From: Escherichia phage Eco_BIFF | Length of the DNA: 49,372 nt | Sequence record: MH285980 | Direction: 5' to 3' (one strand) | Shown here: positions 19,248-46,667 of the stretch, in pieces | Numbering within the stretch: position 1 is the first letter of the stretch | How the letters are laid out: each line of letters begins with the position of its first letter | Position numbers and translations under genes: made by a program | The notes under the pieces: generated by a model | Told to the model about the DNA's origin: nothing | Seen by the model: the letters and a program-made list of their open reading frames with translations, nothing else | Database searches by the model: none

Positions 19248-19553
19248 ATGGCGTACGGTATATCAACTTGGGACGCAAATGGCGTTTATAATAACTATGG
19301 AATTAAGCCTGTCACGGTTGTTGGTTGGAACTTTTTGTCAGCAGGCCAGAATTCAGCATCTTTCAGCTATCAAGTGCCTCCTGGCATGCATGTGAACTAC
19401 GTTATAAGCCTTGACGATGGCGCCATTAGTGGGCCTGGCAGGAAAATTATTGCTAGCGGTAATACGATAACAGTAACGCCAGCAAACTCACCTGGGCCAA
19501 ACGTGCACCCATCATCAAACTGTTACTTAATAGCATATCTGGAGAATGATTAA
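19248..19553 (+). CDS. hypothetical tail-associated protein
   Basis: RBS TTGGAGG before ATG 19248; downstream of J-like gene. Confidence 0.35.
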   Translation: MAYGISTWDANGVYNNYGIKPVTVVGWNFLSAGQNSASFSYQVPPGMHVNYVISLDDGAISGPGRKIIASGNTITVTPANSPGPNVHPSSNCYLIAYLEND

Positions 19554-20242
19554 TGTCATACGGTGCTTTTATAGATGTAAACGGAAACCCATTCATAACC
19601 CCGTTATCCACGCCATTCGCCTTATATACGAGAGGGGAAATTCAATCAGTAAATGTTAGTGGTTCACAGGTTGCGGAGAGATATGTTCGGATACCTACAG
19701 GTGTTCCGGTTATAGCTTTTTGCAAAACAACAAACACGCAGCAGGGGACCGCGCTTTCAGCCTTTACTTTCAGAAGCGGACCCAATGTTGGAACTGTTTA
19801 TATAAGGGGGACAAATCCAGCAAACCAATCATACACGCTAACATACTACATATTTGCCATATTTGAGCAGTCACTACCGAGCTGGGGTATGGCAATATGG
19901 GATTCGTCAGGAAAGCTAGTGCTGACAAATGAGACAAAAGTCCTTAGTGATTTGGTTACAATCGGAACTCCTGGATACTCTGGCGGTGGATTAAAAATAG
20001 ACACAACACTCAGCGGAAGCTACGCAGTTGTCCCAACTATACTTGGCAACTATCAAGTTGTTATTGGCAGGATGCCAACTGGGCAACCCATAATAGGAAA
20101 CTCAACAGCAGGCAGCTCATGCAGGTACAACGGGAGCGCAACTAGGATAAATGCAGCAGCAACCACAGCGGCAGGTCAGATAATGAACACCACGAATAAT
20201 GGAAATATCATAACAGCAATCAACACAGCAGCGTATGACTAA
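19553..20242 (+). CDS. putative distal tail / receptor-binding protein
   Basis: 229-aa Thr/Gly/Asn-rich ORF, last gene of tail operon before bidirectional terminator; function inferred from position. Confidence 0.3.
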   Translation: MSYGAFIDVNGNPFITPLSTPFALYTRGEIQSVNVSGSQVAERYVRIPTGVPVIAFCKTTNTQQGTALSAFTFRSGPNVGTVYIRGTNPANQSYTLTYYIFAIFEQSLPSWGMAIWDSSGKLVLTNETKVLSDLVTIGTPGYSGGGLKIDTTLSGSYAVVPTILGNYQVVIGRMPTGQPIIGNSTAGSSCRYNGSATRINAAATTAAGQIMNTTNNGNIITAINTAAYD

Positions 20243-23263: not shown

Positions 23264-23296
23264 AAAAATCCCCGCATTGCGGGGATTTTATCATTT
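23264..23296. terminator. bidirectional terminator between ssb and tail-fibre gene
   Basis: 9-bp stem AAATCCCCG/CGGGGATTT with A-run upstream and T-run downstream. Confidence 0.65.
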
Positions 23297-24796
23297 GGAC
23301 TTCAACATTTTTATCTCTTCTTGTAACTCTTCAACTTTCTTTATTGTATCCTGTAAAGCTCTCATAGTGTCAAGCAATAAAGGAGTTGTATCAAGCTCAA
23401 GCCTTTCAACTTTTGGCCCGTTTAGCTCGTGGCTCTCATACACCCTTCTCTTAACATATAGATTGTCGATCTCTTCTATCTCCTGAGCTATAACACCTCT
23501 CCTTACCCTTTCTTGCTCATCATCGTTAAATATAAAGTTCCTAAATCTCATTGATTTTATGTTGTTGTATGCAATGCTTGATTCATCATCCTTTATGCTG
23601 TGCTTTATATTTCTGTCAGATGCCGGAACCTGTTGGAAACTTCCAGCCCCTTGCGGTCCAGCGTAAGATATTTGCCCTGAAGCCATAAACCTGAAATGCA
23701 TTTGCAGACCAATATTGCCTGATCCATCCCTATCTTGAGTGCCTACTGATATTTGTGCCCTGGGCCATTCATTATTACCCGTAGTCATCATGCCAAATGC
23801 TACGCCGCCAACGTATCCCAGACCTCTGGTGTCGCACGATCCAGCAATAAGTGATTGATAGTTTTCAGCACCACTATCAGCGGTGTAAGCATTACCCTGG
23901 AAGCATGAAGCAGACCACATCTGGTTATAACTCATAGTTGTTTTCTTGCATAAAAACTGATTGGCTCTGAATCTATTGTTAGTCTCGAAGTAGTTTGCCC
24001 CCTCATAAAATAATAAAGTCCCAGCATAACCATTATCGCTATGTTCTTTTCTTACGTAAATCCCTGGCGAGGATATTCCATCAGGTGACATAATCATCAA
24101 TGATGACAACATGGTCTTACTACCCCAGTTAGAACCGTCCCATGAGTTCCTTCCTGCACCTATAGCACCCGTGGTGTTAATAGTAAGAAAGTTAACAGCA
24201 TCATTTTCACCTAACCCAATATTTTTTCTTGACTCTTTTTTATCCTCAAGACCAGCCAAGTTTCCATCCTTAGTTAAAAGATTTTCAGCATTGATGCTGT
24301 TAGCTGCGTCTTTAGCTTCTTGAGCGCTAACAGATGCCGCATCTTTTGATCTTACCGCATCGTCACGCGCTAATTCAGCCTGATTTTGCGCAGCTTGAGA
24401 ATCAGATTTCGCCTTATTCACATCAGCAACTATTTGCTCAAGTTTATTCATATCAAGCTGATTTATCAGATCTATAGCTGCCGCGATCTCAGTCTCTTTG
24501 CTTTGATAGTATCGAAGCGTCTCGGCAACGTTTTGAGCTAAGCCGTTAACAGTCAACGAATCGTTAAGCAAGATCACATACTTTCCGTCAGCTGCAGTCT
24601 GACCATCCGTAGAGATAGCCTTTAGCTCTGTGTCGCTCACAATATCGCTGATTACCGCCAGCTTAATTGGTTGCTCCAGGAATACGATAGTTGCACCGAC
24701 TCGAATCAGAGCAAGCTGATCTTTCCATTTTGTATCGGTTCCGTGAACCGTGCCGTCTGCATCCATTGATGCAGTACCGCGTCTATATAAAGCCAT
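23291..24796 (-). CDS. tail fibre with C-terminal intramolecular chaperone (peptidase S74-type) domain
   Basis: 501 aa; C-terminal ~120 aa resemble the self-cleaving chaperone domain of phage fibres; own sigma70-like promoter and terminator. Confidence 0.65.
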   Translation of the reverse strand: MALYRRGTASMDADGTVHGTDTKWKDQLALIRVGATIVFLEQPIKLAVISDIVSDTELKAISTDGQTAADGKYVILLNDSLTVNGLAQNVAETLRYYQSKETEIAAAIDLINQLDMNKLEQIVADVNKAKSDSQAAQNQAELARDDAVRSKDAASVSAQEAKDAANSINAENLLTKDGNLAGLEDKKESRKNIGLGENDAVNFLTINTTGAIGAGRNSWDGSNWGSKTMLSSLMIMSPDGISSPGIYVRKEHSDNGYAGTLLFYEGANYFETNNRFRANQFLCKKTTMSYNQMWSASCFQGNAYTADSGAENYQSLIAGSCDTRGLGYVGGVAFGMMTTGNNEWPRAQISVGTQDRDGSGNIGLQMHFRFMASGQISYAGPQGAGSFQQVPASDRNIKHSIKDDESSIAYNNIKSMRFRNFIFNDDEQERVRRGVIAQEIEEIDNLYVKRRVYESHELNGPKVERLELDTTPLLLDTMRALQDTIKKVEELQEEIKMLKSK

Positions 24797-32102: not shown

Positions 32103-32136
32103 TTGATAAAAACGCCCGAAGGGATTCGGGCATAGT
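32093..32136 (+). promoter_or_regulatory. promoter cassette (-10 CATAGT)
   Basis: ATCGCACTAATTGATAAAAA + 18 bp + CATAGT; stop TAA of 30951..32102 lies inside; 23 nt before ATG 32166. Confidence 0.45.
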
Positions 32137-32165
32137 AACAACATCGAAAGCAAAGAGGCTATATC

Positions 32166-34389: not shown

Positions 34390-35958
34390 TTAACCCATCA
34401 GTCGAGGATTGATGAAAACAATATCATCAATTCGGCAAGTGTAATTCATCTCTTCGAGCGTGATTAGAAGACTATCGATTCGCTCAGATACTTTCTGTTG
34501 ACCGTTGAACGGCGTAACGTTCCGGCACTTTGCAACAATACTATGAATAGGTGCGCGCCCCTTGTTCTTCTTTGCGATCTCAGTGATAACATCAATCAGC
34601 TTACGAGATTCAGCCTCATCACCAGCATACCCGGCAGCGCTGGCGGACGACAGATAAGTCCTGGAAAGCTCATTGAAAATCATGATCGCTTCCTGCATTG
34701 TTTCAAGGTCAATCTCACGGTTGGAACGGTTCGGTGATTCACCCTCCCAATTCTTGATCGTGTGGAGAACTGAAGCAATACGCAAAGCGTGCTTATCGAA
34801 CTTGCCGAGATGACCGCGAAGCATTGAGTGAGAGTATTTCCCCCCGGCGGCGAAATCAGGCTCCATCGCCTGGCGCGCAAGGTTTAATTCACGCATAGCA
34901 TTACGGCTAACAGAGAGAACAACGTTGTCCTCCTTCATGATGTTGTGCACGAGTCTGTAATATTTGCTAACCAGTCCGCGATCGACTTCTTTATACAGTG
35001 CATCACCATTTTCATCACAAAGAATACGAGTACCTAAAAGCGGTTCCTCTCGAACCAGGAGGAAACGCTCAGATACACCGATACCGCGCTGGCCTGCGTC
35101 CATGATACCCTTGATTGTTTCATCCTGAGCAATTACGCAGATTGAACCGACCGGACAAAGAGACAAGTTATTGTCCTGGTTTGAACGCGCGACCTCCATA
35201 TGGTTTTTATCCCACGCCTTAAGGATAAGCTCACTGTTAGATTTCTTATCTGAACCGCCATACGTAAGCCCGAGCAATGTATTGATTGCCGTTGCCTCGT
35301 CAGATATTACGGAAAAGTGACCTTGCACTGCCGCCACTTTCGCAAGACCTTCAGGTGTAGGATCTGATACCGCGAAAACAATATCAGCCATCTTCTTGAT
35401 CTTCTCTTCCAGTTTTTCTTTGTCCTCGTACAGAGCCGCCGTCGTGTTACCCTTCGGGTCGTTTTTGATTTCCTTCTCGACCTGACGTAGCTGACTGGTT
35501 AAACGGATACGTTCATTTTTACGCTCTTCATTCAGTCGCTGAATCTCCGCACGCATAGGCGTAATCGCCGCTGAGTTAATCGCTGATTTGCCTGTTGATG
35601 GTGGCTGACTGATTACCATGTAAAGCGCTGTCGGCTGTTCTTCTCCATGATATTGCACCCAAAACTTCCCGAGCATCGCGGCTGAGATGCAACCGATAAA
35701 ATGAGCATACGCGGATGAAACCGGGAACTGGACTGATTCAGCTTTTGCTTTTGCATATTCGAATACCAAGTTATCGCCACCTAACGAAATCAGAGGGAAC
35801 TTATCGTTTCCGCTGTTGATATCGATCGGATCTTGCCAAAAAGAAACTGAATCCCCGTAACTGTTTTCACGAATTGCGATCGCCACCGGATTCACTCCAG
35901 TGCTATTTGCGATCTCAATAATCTGTTGGTAATTCAGTTTTGGCTTAATATTAAACAT
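34390..35958 (-). CDS. P-loop NTPase of unknown function (coiled-coil between Walker A and Walker B)
   Basis: Start set at ATG 35958 (RBS AAGGAG); Walker A-like PPSTGKS, helical insert, Walker B-like FSVISDEAT; no family assignment possible. Confidence 0.45.
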   Translation of the reverse strand: MFNIKPKLNYQQIIEIANSTGVNPVAIAIRENSYGDSVSFWQDPIDINSGNDKFPLISLGGDNLVFEYAKAKAESVQFPVSSAYAHFIGCISAAMLGKFWVQYHGEEQPTALYMVISQPPSTGKSAINSAAITPMRAEIQRLNEERKNERIRLTSQLRQVEKEIKNDPKGNTTAALYEDKEKLEEKIKKMADIVFAVSDPTPEGLAKVAAVQGHFSVISDEATAINTLLGLTYGGSDKKSNSELILKAWDKNHMEVARSNQDNNLSLCPVGSICVIAQDETIKGIMDAGQRGIGVSERFLLVREEPLLGTRILCDENGDALYKEVDRGLVSKYYRLVHNIMKEDNVVLSVSRNAMRELNLARQAMEPDFAAGGKYSHSMLRGHLGKFDKHALRIASVLHTIKNWEGESPNRSNREIDLETMQEAIMIFNELSRTYLSSASAAGYAGDEAESRKLIDVITEIAKKNKGRAPIHSIVAKCRNVTPFNGQQKVSERIDSLLITLEEMNYTCRIDDIVFINPRLMG

Positions 35959-35987
35959 CACAATAAACTCCTTAGTTGACGGTGTGA

Positions 35988-36031
35988 ATGATACACCGCC
36001 AATGGTACACGCGTTTTTCAAAAAATGCTAT
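35988..36031 (-). promoter_or_regulatory. promoter cassette (-10 TATCAT); upstream of ATPase
   Basis: Minus-strand ATAGCATTTTTTGAAAAAC + 19 bp + TATCAT; element overlaps the last codons and stop of HNH 36018..36503. Confidence 0.45.
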
Positions 36032-36503
36032 TCGATCCGTGATTCTCATGAAAACCAAGATCAATGAGTATTGAATCTCTTAAATCTATAGCCTCACTAA
36101 CAGTGTCAACGCACCTTCCGTAAGTCTTACCCATAAATCTAACTCTTACCCTGTAAGAGCCTGATTTCATAGGGTATATGCAATTCATGCCAGATGTGTT
36201 ATTTTTGTTTAGACTTCTATTTGTTGTGTTCCCTTCTCTAGTTACAAGTCTTAAATTTTCAATTCTATCATCACCTGGTATATGGTTTATGTGGTCTATT
36301 TCCATACCTTCAGGTATCTGGCCGTTAAAAATAGTCCATACATATCTATGTCTATAAACCATCCTAAACCCATCATAAAACCTACAGTAACCCAGCCTAT
36401 CTAACTTTCCAGTCTCTCTCCCAACAAGGTTTTTAAATCTAGTGTTACTCTTATAATAAATAATTCCATCAACATATAAAAAATCATCTCTTATATTTAT
36501 CAT
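36018..36503 (-). CDS. HNH homing endonuclease (HNH + AP2-like domain)
   Basis: EIDHINHIPGDDRIENLRLVTREGN motif plus AP2-like GSYRVRVRFMGKTYG; AGA/ATA-rich codon usage; paralogue of 45598..46092. Confidence 0.7.
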   Translation of the reverse strand: MINIRDDFLYVDGIIYYKSNTRFKNLVGRETGKLDRLGYCRFYDGFRMVYRHRYVWTIFNGQIPEGMEIDHINHIPGDDRIENLRLVTREGNTTNRSLNKNNTSGMNCIYPMKSGSYRVRVRFMGKTYGRCVDTVSEAIDLRDSILIDLGFHENHGSNSIF

Positions 36504-36916
36504 GAGTACAATCCTTCAAAACAAGTGCCGTCTGCAATGATGAATCCGACATCCGCACGAAATAAATTCCAGCGGCAACCATCCTCATCAAAGATGTAAC
36601 CAGCTACGCCACCGAGAGCGCGACCGCTTTCAACCTGGTAACGCTTGCCAACTTTGAATGATTTTTTCATTGGGTTGCGATGGTCAAGTCCGGTGCACTT
36701 GATCGTCTTTGTTTTCAACTCGGTGAACTTCGCGAAGAAGATTTCATCAGATCCGTGAATATGTAATTCATCATGCCTTTCAAGTTTTAAATACTTCCCG
36801 CATTTTAACTTTACTTCGCGAGTACCATCATAGCGCTCACGACCTTTGTACAGATTGTTTACTTCGAATCCTGTGATTTTGTCTGCGGAAGTGCATTTAA
36901 GTTTGATGGATTTCAT
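36500..36916 (-). CDS. hypothetical early protein
   Basis: 138-aa ORF with RBS CAGGAG, 30 nt behind cassette 36953..36996. Confidence 0.45.
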   Translation of the reverse strand: MKSIKLKCTSADKITGFEVNNLYKGRERYDGTREVKLKCGKYLKLERHDELHIHGSDEIFFAKFTELKTKTIKCTGLDHRNPMKKSFKVGKRYQVESGRALGGVAGYIFDEDGCRWNLFRADVGFIIADGTCFEGLYS

Positions 36917-44877: not shown

Positions 44878-45081
44878 ATGAAAACTATTACCGGAATGAG
44901 CAACGAAACGAGAACGCAGATCGTTAGCATGCTAATCGGCATGGCTGACGATATTCAGAATAGCCATGTCGTTATTGATTCATGCAATCAGACTCGTGAG
45001 AGTAAATTTGAATCATCCGGCTACAAAATTGTTGAAGAAGAATTAACCATCAAAATCATTCGCGTACAGGAGAAAGCATAA
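44878..45081 (+). CDS. hypothetical early protein
   Basis: 67-aa ORF with RBS AGAGGAA behind cassette 44795..44838. Confidence 0.45.
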   Translation: MKTITGMSNETRTQIVSMLIGMADDIQNSHVVIDSCNQTRESKFESSGYKIVEEELTIKIIRVQEKA

Positions 45082-45611
45082 TGGATAAAATCACAATTTG
45101 GGGTCAGAAAATCAACCTGTTTCTCGGCACGCGCCGCGTAGCAATCTTTGACTTTGACGGGACGCTGAGTGAAGGATCTGGTCGACTTCACCTGTTACCG
45201 ACAAAAGATTTGCACTTGACTGAAAGCTGGTCTGAGTTTAACCGTGCGGCAATATTTGACAACCCTATCCAAAGCACGATCGACGTGATGAACTCTATGT
45301 TTGCCGCTGGATATCATGTAATAATTTTAACCGGGCGAAGTGATGAGGTGCGTTACGCATCTGAGTTATGGCTTAAGCATCACGGCGCTCGATATGATTA
45401 CTTAGTCATGCGACCGCACACCGACAACCGTAAAGACACGGTAATGAAAGAAGAGGCAGTGCGCGCGATCGGCATTGATAACATTCTGGCGGCTTGGGAT
45501 GACTCAGTGAATATAATAAAAAAATTCAGAGAGCTAGGAATAACCACGTATCAGGTTTGTGAATATGCCTGTAATAGTCGAGAGGATTTAAAAAGTCATG
45601 GTGTCGATTGA
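45081..45611 (+). CDS. HAD-superfamily phosphatase
   Basis: HAD motif I FDFDGTL and downstream motifs (ILTGRSD, W-DD); RBS GGAGAAAG. Confidence 0.6.
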   Translation: MDKITIWGQKINLFLGTRRVAIFDFDGTLSEGSGRLHLLPTKDLHLTESWSEFNRAAIFDNPIQSTIDVMNSMFAAGYHVIILTGRSDEVRYASELWLKHHGARYDYLVMRPHTDNRKDTVMKEEAVRAIGIDNILAAWDDSVNIIKKFRELGITTYQVCEYACNSREDLKSHGVD

Positions 45612-46092
45612 TAACAAATCAAGGGTAAGAGAGTTATTTACTTATTCTGACGGCGTTCTGTATTGGAAAGCTAAATCATCTAAATACAGTAGAGCTAAAA
45701 TAGGAGGAGCGGCAGGAAGCAAGGATAAAGACGGATACATAATAATCAGAGTAAGAAGCGAAACTAGAGGCGCTCACAGGCTTGTATGGATATACCATAA
45801 TGGTAAGATACCGAATGGAATGGAGGTAGACCATATGGATGGAGACATAAAAAACAATAGAATAGAAAACCTAAGATTGGTAACGAGAACCATAAATAAC
45901 AGGAATCAAAAAAAGAGATTTGATAACACAACCGGAGTATCCGGTGTAACTTTCATGAAAGATAGAGGAAAGTATAGGGCGCAAGTTAGAAATAAGAAAC
46001 TCGGGCAATTCGACACAATAGAAGAGGCCGCTCAAGCCGTAAATTATGAGCGTGATAGATTAGGTTTATTCACAAAAAGACACGGAGTATAA
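45598..46092 (+). CDS. HNH homing endonuclease (HNH + AP2-like domain)
   Basis: EVDHMDGDIKNNRIENLRLVTR motif plus AP2-like GKYRAQVRNKKLGQF; AGA/ATA-rich codons; paralogue of 36018..36503. Confidence 0.7.
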   Translation: MVSIDNKSRVRELFTYSDGVLYWKAKSSKYSRAKIGGAAGSKDKDGYIIIRVRSETRGAHRLVWIYHNGKIPNGMEVDHMDGDIKNNRIENLRLVTRTINNRNQKKRFDNTTGVSGVTFMKDRGKYRAQVRNKKLGQFDTIEEAAQAVNYERDRLGLFTKRHGV

Positions 46093-46094
46093 AC

Positions 46095-46667
46095 ATGAAA
46101 ACAGCTATCATTTTAAACGGAGCACCTGGCGCAGGAAAAGACACTATCGGATGCATCCTGGCTGACACTTACGATCATGTAGCGCTACGCAGCTTCAAAG
46201 CGCCAATGTTTGAGATTGCCAGAGCAATCCTGGGTGAGGCTAATTTCGAGTATTTCATGTTCTTGTATGAGGACCGTCGCTATAAAGAAGAGCCAGCATC
46301 AATCCTGAACGGTAAAAGCCCGCGCCAGTTTATGATCTGGATTAGCGAGGAAGTCATCAAGCCGCAGTTCGGAAATCGCTTCTTCGGTATGCGAGCGGAA
46401 AGCAAGGTGAAAGAGTCGCACTCCCTTTCGGTATTTACTGATGGTGGATTCAAAGACGAAATCTTGCAGATGATTGAAGGTGATATCCAAGTCAAGCTAT
46501 GTCGAATACATCGCAACGGTTGCAACTTCGATAATGACAGTCGAGACTATATCTACCTGGACGATATGATCGGGGTTAACGGCTATCAGGAGTGTGACTT
46601 CTTCTCTGTCGAAGGTCATCCAGAAATTACCGCTCATCACATAGCCGCCACGTTCATCAATAAATAG
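46095..46667 (+). CDS. P-loop nucleotide kinase (dNMP-kinase-like)
   Basis: Walker A GAPGAGKDT at N-terminus, 190 aa; RBS GGAG; stop TAG inside element 46664..46683. Confidence 0.55.
   Translation: MKTAIILNGAPGAGKDTIGCILADTYDHVALRSFKAPMFEIARAILGEANFEYFMFLYEDRRYKEEPASILNGKSPRQFMIWISEEVIKPQFGNRFFGMRAESKVKESHSLSVFTDGGFKDEILQMIEGDIQVKLCRIHRNGCNFDNDSRDYIYLDDMIGVNGYQECDFFSVEGHPEITAHHIAATFINK

Follow-up and report, generated by a model that had tools for sequence, protein, structure and literature searches.

Two HNH_3-AP2 genes, probably homing endonucleases, at gene junctions of a T1-like phage genome

We analysed a stretch of 49,372 nucleotides, which as a whole is called the window. It carries two genes, HNH1 and HNH2, that encode HNH_3-AP2 proteins. 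Most probably, both belong to the free-standing homing endonuclease genes of the HNH_3/AP2 family of phages, and a T1-like phage acquired each of them independently. This reading rests on protein architecture, intact residues, purifying selection, patchy occurrence, fidelity to the insertion site and discordant similarity of cassettes and flanks. Cleavage, the position of the target, self-immunity and current activity we infer. The original prediction had placed two open reading frames in the window, and both are present where it put them:

36018–36503, minus strand: HNH1 (locus 1); HNH_3 nuclease and AP2-fold domain, 161 aa, phrog_99, family-invariant residues kept
45598–46092, plus strand: HNH2 (locus 2); HNH_3 nuclease and AP2 domain, 164 aa, phrog_99, 94.5% identity to T1 CPTT1_015

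Two proteins of one large family

On sequence comparison, the window is classed as a T1-like coliphage genome of the genus Tunavirus (Drexlerviridae). Stretches of 4 kb around both loci are 92–95% identical to Tunavirus genomes (SA32RD, Shfl1, phiL, T1), and no database record identical to the window was found. At both loci the tunavirus flanks are mosaic, with the nearest neighbour changing every few hundred bases. No tRNA genes encoded in the window were found. HNH1 and HNH2 are the sole genes of their kind, since no third HNH paralog was found in the window. Both are separate reading frames between genes, each with its own start and stop codon. Rfam families, including group I and group II introns, gave no match in the whole window. 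Hence, HNH1 and HNH2 are free-standing.

Both proteins match Pfam HNH_3 (PF13392), with 69.6 bits for HNH1 and 77.2 bits for HNH2 (cut-off 24.8). They align over their full length (37% identity, E 2e-25). Residues D70, H71, N83, N92 and N95 of HNH1, and D78, H79, N91, N100 and N103 of HNH2, fall in columns that are invariant in 67–71 homologs. The conserved D-H pair and the Asn residues align with the I-HmuI motif. Pfam AP2 scored 19.9 bits in HNH2, under the 33.3 cut-off, and had no match in HNH1; 43 of 71 family homologs match it, with a best E-value of 1e-8.

AF2 models were built on ~70 homologs (pLDDT 87 for HNH1 and 91 for HNH2). The top Foldseek match of both was I-HmuI (1U3E, probability 1.0). 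The HNH2 model aligns with 1U3E over 97 columns (rmsd 3.6 Å, 34% identity), and its nuclease domain also matches I-HmuI by sequence (E 5e-6). A PDB sequence search with HNH1 gave no match, and the fold search was used instead. The C-terminal domain of HNH2 resembles AtERF1 (1GCC; 1.8 Å over 53 columns, probability 1.0) and WRINKLED1 (1.4 Å). That of HNH1 consists of three strands (109–128) and a helix (135–148), and matched the TEM1 AP2 domain (probability 0.97). E-values of the AP2 fold matches are weak because the domain is small. As modelled, both proteins have an I-HmuI-like HNH_3 nuclease and, C-terminal to it, an AP2-fold domain. The expectation of a shared HNH motif was thus borne out, and that of an AP2-like domain by fold.

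Among solved structures, I-HmuI (PDB 1U3E), from Bacillus phage SPO1, is closest to the nuclease domain in both sequence and fold. This enzyme nicks one strand. It differs in its location within a group I intron and in having another C-terminal DNA-binding region, whereas HNH1 and HNH2 are free-standing and have an AP2 domain.

The two genes had also been described as a paralogous pair. They do belong to one large family, but they are not duplicates of each other. Recent duplication within the genome was ruled out by their mutual identity of only 37% and by closer relatives elsewhere; each is nearer to HNH genes of other phages (42–65% identity). HNH1 and HNH2 appear to be independent acquisitions from that family, which a tblastn search against a phage collection matched in thousands of records. 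The HNH-AP2 family is established (PMC2248197, PMC10448857). Our literature search found almost no experimental work on HNH_3-AP2 proteins, and no cleavage, homing or expression data for HNH1, HNH2 or the HNH genes of T1.

Codon use sets the two genes apart from the other 70 reading frames; a difference from their neighbours had been proposed. Arginine is encoded by AGA or AGG at 17 of 17 positions in HNH1 and 17 of 18 in HNH2 (34/35 together, against 167/715, or 23%, elsewhere). Isoleucine is encoded by ATA at 9 of 15 and 9 of 11 positions (18/26 together, against 139/983). Fisher p values for these biases range from 4e-11 to 6e-5. The GC3 of HNH1 (0.28) is the lowest of the 72 reading frames and that of HNH2 (0.34) the third lowest; the mean is 0.47. 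Gene by gene, codon use in HNH1 and HNH2 is not host-like. Two other genes are rich in AGA, AGG and ATA. These are the phrog_425 membrane-associated protein gene (19553–20242, plus strand; 7/8 Arg, 15/20 Ile) and an opposite-strand tail fibre gene (23291–24796, minus strand; 21/25 Arg, 15/32 Ile). Lateral acquisition is probable for these two modules too.

The dN/dS ratio is 0.18 for HNH2 against its T1 ortholog and 0.14 for HNH1 against a 71%-identical relative (in L021). Neighbouring genes give 0.005–0.05. The HNH proteins are under purifying selection, weaker than that on core genes. Synonymous divergence between HNH2 and its T1 ortholog is 0.127, about half of the 0.25 in the flanks (p = 0.02). 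This greater likeness of HNH2 than of its flanks is marginal and suggestive only.

Cassette anatomy at the two loci

Locus 1 is empty in most tunaviruses, which have a 76-nt spacer between a 138-aa gene (phrog_2684) and a DUF3987 ATPase gene. The parts of the occupied locus are as follows:

36504–36568, minus strand: rewritten, hypervariable tail (65 nt) of the upstream gene (36500–36916, phrog_2684)
36018–36032, minus strand: end of HNH1, five codons plus stop (AATAGCATTTTTTGA); pre-existing spacer sequence
35959–36017, minus strand: conserved spacer (59 nt) kept from the empty site, with a hairpin at 36002–35976 and AAGGAG at 35973–35968
34390–35958, minus strand: DUF3987 ATPase/helicase gene (context), 522 aa with the ATG taken as start rather than the TTG at 36021

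The upstream gene ends FEGLYS* in the window and FEAKYL* in empty alleles. Its 65-nt tail is 63–70% identical to every relative, whereas the rest of the gene is 90–97% identical (p = 1e-6 or lower). The HNH1 ribosome-binding site, GAAGGA (36517–36512), lies inside this rewritten tail, 8 nt before the HNH1 ATG. The ATG itself overlaps the upstream stop codon (ATGA, 36503–36500). At the other end, the last 15 nt of HNH1 (36032–36018) are homologous to AATAGCACTTTTTGC, which is present in empty-site genomes. Hence, the 3' edge of the cassette falls between 36033 and 36032. Two point differences from the empty allele (ACT to ATT and TGC to TGA) make the TGA stop of HNH1; they also occur in Lg3.

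The ATPase ATG (35958–35956) is served by AAGGAG, which sits 9 nt upstream. Every annotated relative starts this gene at the equivalent ATG. A start at TTG 36021 was ruled out by these annotations, by the gene's own AAGGAG and by the substitution pattern in the extension. Briefly, the 63-nt extension differs from the empty-site allele at three positions. Two differences would be non-synonymous and the third is in the would-be start codon. By comparison, the ATPase gene differs from that of SA32RD by 1 non-synonymous and 39 synonymous changes.

The spacer, the hairpin and the AAGGAG are unchanged; HNH1 is therefore not coupled to the ATPase gene and brings no new promoter. Translational coupling to both flanks had been proposed. 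The layout around HNH1 suits it on the upstream side, in the ATGA overlap, but not downstream, where the ATPase ATG follows a 59-nt spacer and has its own ribosome-binding site. It had further been proposed that the last codons of HNH1 form a promoter element for the ATPase gene. We rejected this, as a sigma-70 scan placed no promoter at the HNH1 stop and found no excess in the region (5 sites, against 5.3 in shuffles). The candidate pair near the stop, TTGAAA to TATCAT, needs a 22-nt spacer, and the last 15 nt of HNH1 were there before the insertion.

The hairpin has a 10-bp stem (UUGGCGGUGU / ACACCGUCAA, 35976–36002, minus strand). Located a short way before the ATPase ribosome-binding site, it is retained by all relatives. 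The SA32RD record annotates it as a terminator. We did not adopt this assignment; the hairpin is without a U-tract, and its fold does not surpass that of shuffled sequence (z = -0.74).

At locus 2, HNH2 lies between a HAD phosphatase gene and a kinase gene, as originally described:

45506–45597, plus strand: rewritten tail (92 nt) of the HAD phosphatase (PNK-type) gene (45081–45611); travels with HNH2
45506–46094, plus strand: whole locus-2 cassette; replaces the native phosphatase tail and the 108-nt spacer of the empty allele
46095–46667, plus strand: dNMP kinase gene (context), downstream of HNH2

The cassette has sharp breakpoints, 45505/45506 at its left edge and 46094/46095 at its right. 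The first 14 nt of HNH2 (45598–45611) lie within the phosphatase gene, and the HNH2 stop is 2 nt before the kinase ATG. The HNH2 ribosome-binding site, GAGGA (45582–45586), is within the REDL codons (CGAGAGGAT) of the phosphatase tail. The signature of endonuclease-linked phosphatase tails is A-x-x-x-REDL. For the kinase ATG (46095), GGAG is found in the last codons of HNH2 (46084–46087), 7 nt before the ATG. Empty alleles have this site at the end of a small reading frame instead.

That reading frame is unannotated, has 36 codons, encodes a hydrophobic peptide (MNLYEFIAAHPVLTVIILLIINHTIINVAKLFLGRY) and is contained in the 108-nt spacer between the phosphatase and kinase genes. It was located in SA30RD (L006:1912–2022) and Lg3 (L014:1708–1818), and also in phiL, Shfl1 and SH6. 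In empty-site genomes it is coupled to both neighbouring genes. The SA30RD and Lg3 proteins differ solely at the last residue, and the visible nucleotide differences between phiL and SA30RD read as synonymous. Near-exclusively synonymous differences argue for a genuine gene. It is missing from the window, where the HNH2 cassette replaces this conserved gene for a putative membrane peptide.

Insertion exactly at gene boundaries, as first proposed, does not describe either locus. The last 65–92 nt of the upstream gene are replaced in both cases, and HNH2 also takes the place of the 36-codon gene.

Occupied and empty sites among relatives

Presence of the HNH genes was searched for across 50,697 records. 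Lg3 was the sole other carrier of HNH1 at 95% identity or more, and T1 and JMPW2 were the only other carriers of HNH2 at 90% or more. With the locus-1 query, 47 records cover at least 80%; among the matches listed, none exceeds 88%, the coverage expected without HNH1. Empty sites were seen in Shfl1, SA32RD, SA30RD, Chapo, phiD2-2, JMPW1, phiL, SH6 and many more. Hence, relatives do not all carry HNH genes at these loci, and most tunaviruses have empty sites. HNH1 is a new allele.

T1 carries HNH2, a different HNH gene at locus 1 and a third HNH gene that is missing from the window. The third site is empty in the window (32103–32165, between an SbcD-like exonuclease gene and a small SH3 gene). 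Occupancy of the three T1 sites is independent: sites 1 and 2 are filled in the window, all three in T1, and site 1 only in Lg3 (of two examined). The three 'homing HNH endonucleases' of T1 are missing in SH6 and pSf-2 (PMC5238451), and mobility of HNH genes among T1-like phages has been noted (PMC13164509).

At locus 1, HNH1 of the window and of Lg3 is identical at 482 of 486 nt, whereas the ATPase gene is identical at 1484 of 1569 (p = 6.5e-7). T1 and JMPW2 have a different HNH gene there, with ~40% protein identity to HNH1. Its similarity to HNH1 is confined to the HNH core and the last 24 nt. The T1 gene, CPTT1_072 (AAP49991), lies at the same junction and has the same 3' junction as HNH1. 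However, compared with the T1 gene, HNH1 was inserted at the opposite side of the original KYL* codons. CPTT1_072 (L001:2459–2998) also reads 18 codons further through the spacer and overlaps the ATPase start, whereas HNH1 stops 59 nt short of it.

Metagenome relatives of HNH1 occupy the same junction, one with 92% nucleotide identity and others with 76, 71 and 66% amino-acid identity. These relatives (66–92%) lie directly downstream of a 138–145-aa upstream gene, and the DUF3987 ATPase gene follows in contigs that reach far enough. An insertion scar is visible in contig L023, where 16 nt that once ended the upstream gene (AAAAATACTTATAACC) survive downstream of the HNH reading frame. The element therefore entered within the last codons of the upstream gene and supplied a replacement end. 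The 71%-identical relative (L021:3001–3441) has a premature stop that leaves 146 aa, without the conserved C-terminal GFHENHG motif. This copy looks like one in decay.

One endonuclease-linked tail type is common to Lg3, L023, L021 and L024. The locus-1 tail of the window is a third and unique type, 63–65% identical to that one. Simple co-conversion from a sampled donor is hence no explanation for the tail of the window. T1, with a different HNH gene at locus 1, still has the tail type of the empty site. A rewritten tail is thus not universally required.

As for locus 2, T1 and JMPW2 carry HNH2 (94.5% amino-acid identity). The other tunaviruses examined lack it, among them Lg3, which has HNH1. 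The T1 ortholog, CPTT1_015 (AAP49937), shares the junction, the 14-nt overlap and the rewritten phosphatase tail. The 92-nt tail is 95% identical to T1 and 59–63% identical to empty-site genomes, whereas the 425 nt of the gene before it are 88–96% identical to all genomes compared. A 65%-identical relative of HNH2 occupies the same phosphatase–kinase junction in TH21, a Nouzillyvirus phage. The phosphatase tail of the window is 74% identical to TH21 against 60% to empty-site tunaviruses. For the rest of the gene the order is reversed, with 58% to TH21 and 92% to empty-site tunaviruses (tail contrast p = 0.002 and 1e-13). TH21 is also the best database match to the tail outside T1 and JMPW2. 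This grouping of tail and endonuclease gene across genera is indirect evidence of preferential inheritance.

Other variation was seen around locus 2. A 67-aa reading frame (phrog_29229; 44878–45081 in the window) immediately precedes the phosphatase gene. The window, phiL, SA30RD and Shfl1 have it, and T1, JMPW2, Lg3 and SH6 do not. This frame appears as a second presence/absence polymorphism beside the HNH2 site. The phiL phosphatase gene contains a TGA in frame close to its 5' end (L005, ~1250–1260), with GAC TGA for the GAC GGG of relatives, and the record annotates only a shorter coding sequence. The gene may be a pseudogene or the stop a sequencing error. Nouzillyvirus-like phages without an HNH gene at the junction have a 27-aa C-terminal extension of the phosphatase with a CKKC motif. 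In phage 50EP, an HNH gene is instead upstream of the phosphatase gene. The neighbourhood is hence a multi-site hotspot (L017:477–1094, L019:426–1043, L018:1378–1830).

Phage vB_SsoS_008 (MK335533.1, 8879–9152; L025:1304–1577) has, at the junction of the phosphatase and kinase genes, a collinear patchwork in which pieces of HNH2 alternate with pieces of the small reading frame of the empty allele. The adjoining genes look frameshifted and the record appears error-rich. With pieces of both alleles in such a record, we did not use it as evidence of a decayed HNH2 remnant. The patchwork may be a consensus of a mixed occupied and empty population, or a complex recombinant.

Homing, its rivals and known systems

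In the proposed mechanism, each HNH gene would be translated from the host operon by means of the ribosome-binding site and start codon in the rewritten upstream tail. On co-infection with a relative that is without the gene, the AP2 domain would bind a site near the junction. The I-HmuI-like nuclease would then nick or cut that site. Recombinational repair would copy the cassette, together with the rewritten tail, into the broken genome. The rewritten tail would probably also take the enzyme's target out of the carrier genome. Such target removal is plausible from the sequence differences in the tails.

Patchy distribution, a site shared across genera, an element younger than its flanks and a flank that travels with it fit intronless homing as in T4 (PMC2988022). 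The original prediction had read the two genes as a footprint of homing at gene junctions. Patchiness, site fidelity and discordant similarity agree with this; the anatomy that it gave was inexact.

A tentative extension gives the tail a larger part. It is possible, though we hold it doubtful, that the tail is a functional adaptor that re-terminates the invaded gene, carries the ribosome-binding site and start codon, and erases the recognition site. On this reading, an arms race would be under way in the tail region. Locus 1 has at least three tail alleles, and the one in the window, being unique, could be an escape variant and not hitch-hiking donor DNA. Were the tail such an adaptor, the cost of invasion at locus 2 would be the loss of the conserved 36-codon membrane-peptide gene.

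Patchiness could also be produced by ordinary homologous recombination between mosaic phages. On a rival reading, the two genes would be passive cargo or inactive relics, once mobile or moved only by homologous recombination at conserved flanks, with no endonuclease-driven spread now. The mosaic flanks, with the nearest neighbour switching over a few hundred bases, speak for this. So does the truncation of the L021 protein (P0003) to 146 aa, since copies do decay, and rare-codon use suggests low expression. However, both reading frames in the window are full length and keep every family-invariant residue, and dN/dS is 0.14–0.18, not ~1. The same junction is occupied across genera, and the rewritten tails have kept an HNH ribosome-binding site and start codon. 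We consider this rival unlikely.

Less likely again, and improbable to us, is that the nucleases are domesticated and kept for benefit to the phage (host DNA breakdown, recombination or interference with competitors), not as selfish elements; purifying selection, published phage homing endonucleases that aid competition or immune evasion (PMC11620839, PMC13096335) and the DNA packaging role of some HNH nucleases (discussed in PMC10448857) favour it, but most tunaviruses are without these genes and otherwise collinear and viable, the genes are not near those for terminase, different phages have filled the three T1 sites independently, and a competitive benefit would use the same cleavage mechanism as homing.

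Homing by free-standing genes has close parallels. Free-standing endonucleases cleave at some distance from where they are inserted, and flanking DNA is co-converted (PMC2988022). Among T4-type phages, SegF, SegG and MobE are intergenic, with flank co-conversion and cleavage offset from the insertion site (PMC2988022). SegH and Hef replace mobC and mobE, according to PMC2988022 and to Sandegren et al. (2005) as cited in PMC5238451. The two different HNH genes at locus 1 parallel this replacement. The enzymes themselves differ: Seg enzymes are GIY-YIG and Mob enzymes HNH with zinc-finger-like C-termini, whereas HNH1 and HNH2 are HNH_3 with AP2. Cleavage and marker exclusion are experimentally shown for T4, and we infer them for HNH1 and HNH2.

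In Skunavirus phages, free-standing I-HmuI-like HNH genes display marker exclusion (PMC12724721). These small siphoviruses vary in the number and position of the genes, which cluster by insertion site, and some of the genes exclude phage without them (PMC12724721). They differ from HNH1 and HNH2 in host group and in C-terminal domains.

The HNH-AP2 (HNN-AP2) family of phages, cyanobacteria and ciliates has the same order of HNH and then AP2, in the account of Magnani et al. (2004) given by PMC10448857 and PMC2248197. The family includes the IPA-HNH genes of ICP1 and has multiple scattered copies per phage genome, with T1 a named carrier (PMC2248197). The ICP1 domains are too divergent for Pfam HNH_3 (PMC10448857), whereas HNH1 and HNH2 match it strongly. 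In the Xanthomonas phage study, flanks were not conserved, and spread independent of sequence was proposed (PMC2248197). Here, in contrast, the site is conserved across genera.

We conclude that the two loci are a clear, if ordinary, case of mobile elements of a known kind, and nothing in them overturns current understanding. The cassette anatomy, with a replacement gene end and a ribosome-binding site, is a useful detail and not a new kind of system. Annotation can be corrected at the ATPase start and by adding the missed 36-codon gene of empty-site genomes. The cassettes and the attached 65–92 nt of upstream gene have a history unlike that of the backbone and should be masked in trees of T1-like phages. 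Occupied and empty allele pairs at two sites are ready substrates for the first HNH_3-AP2 cleavage and homing assays. At locus 1, such pairs offer two different endonuclease genes at one site in different phages.
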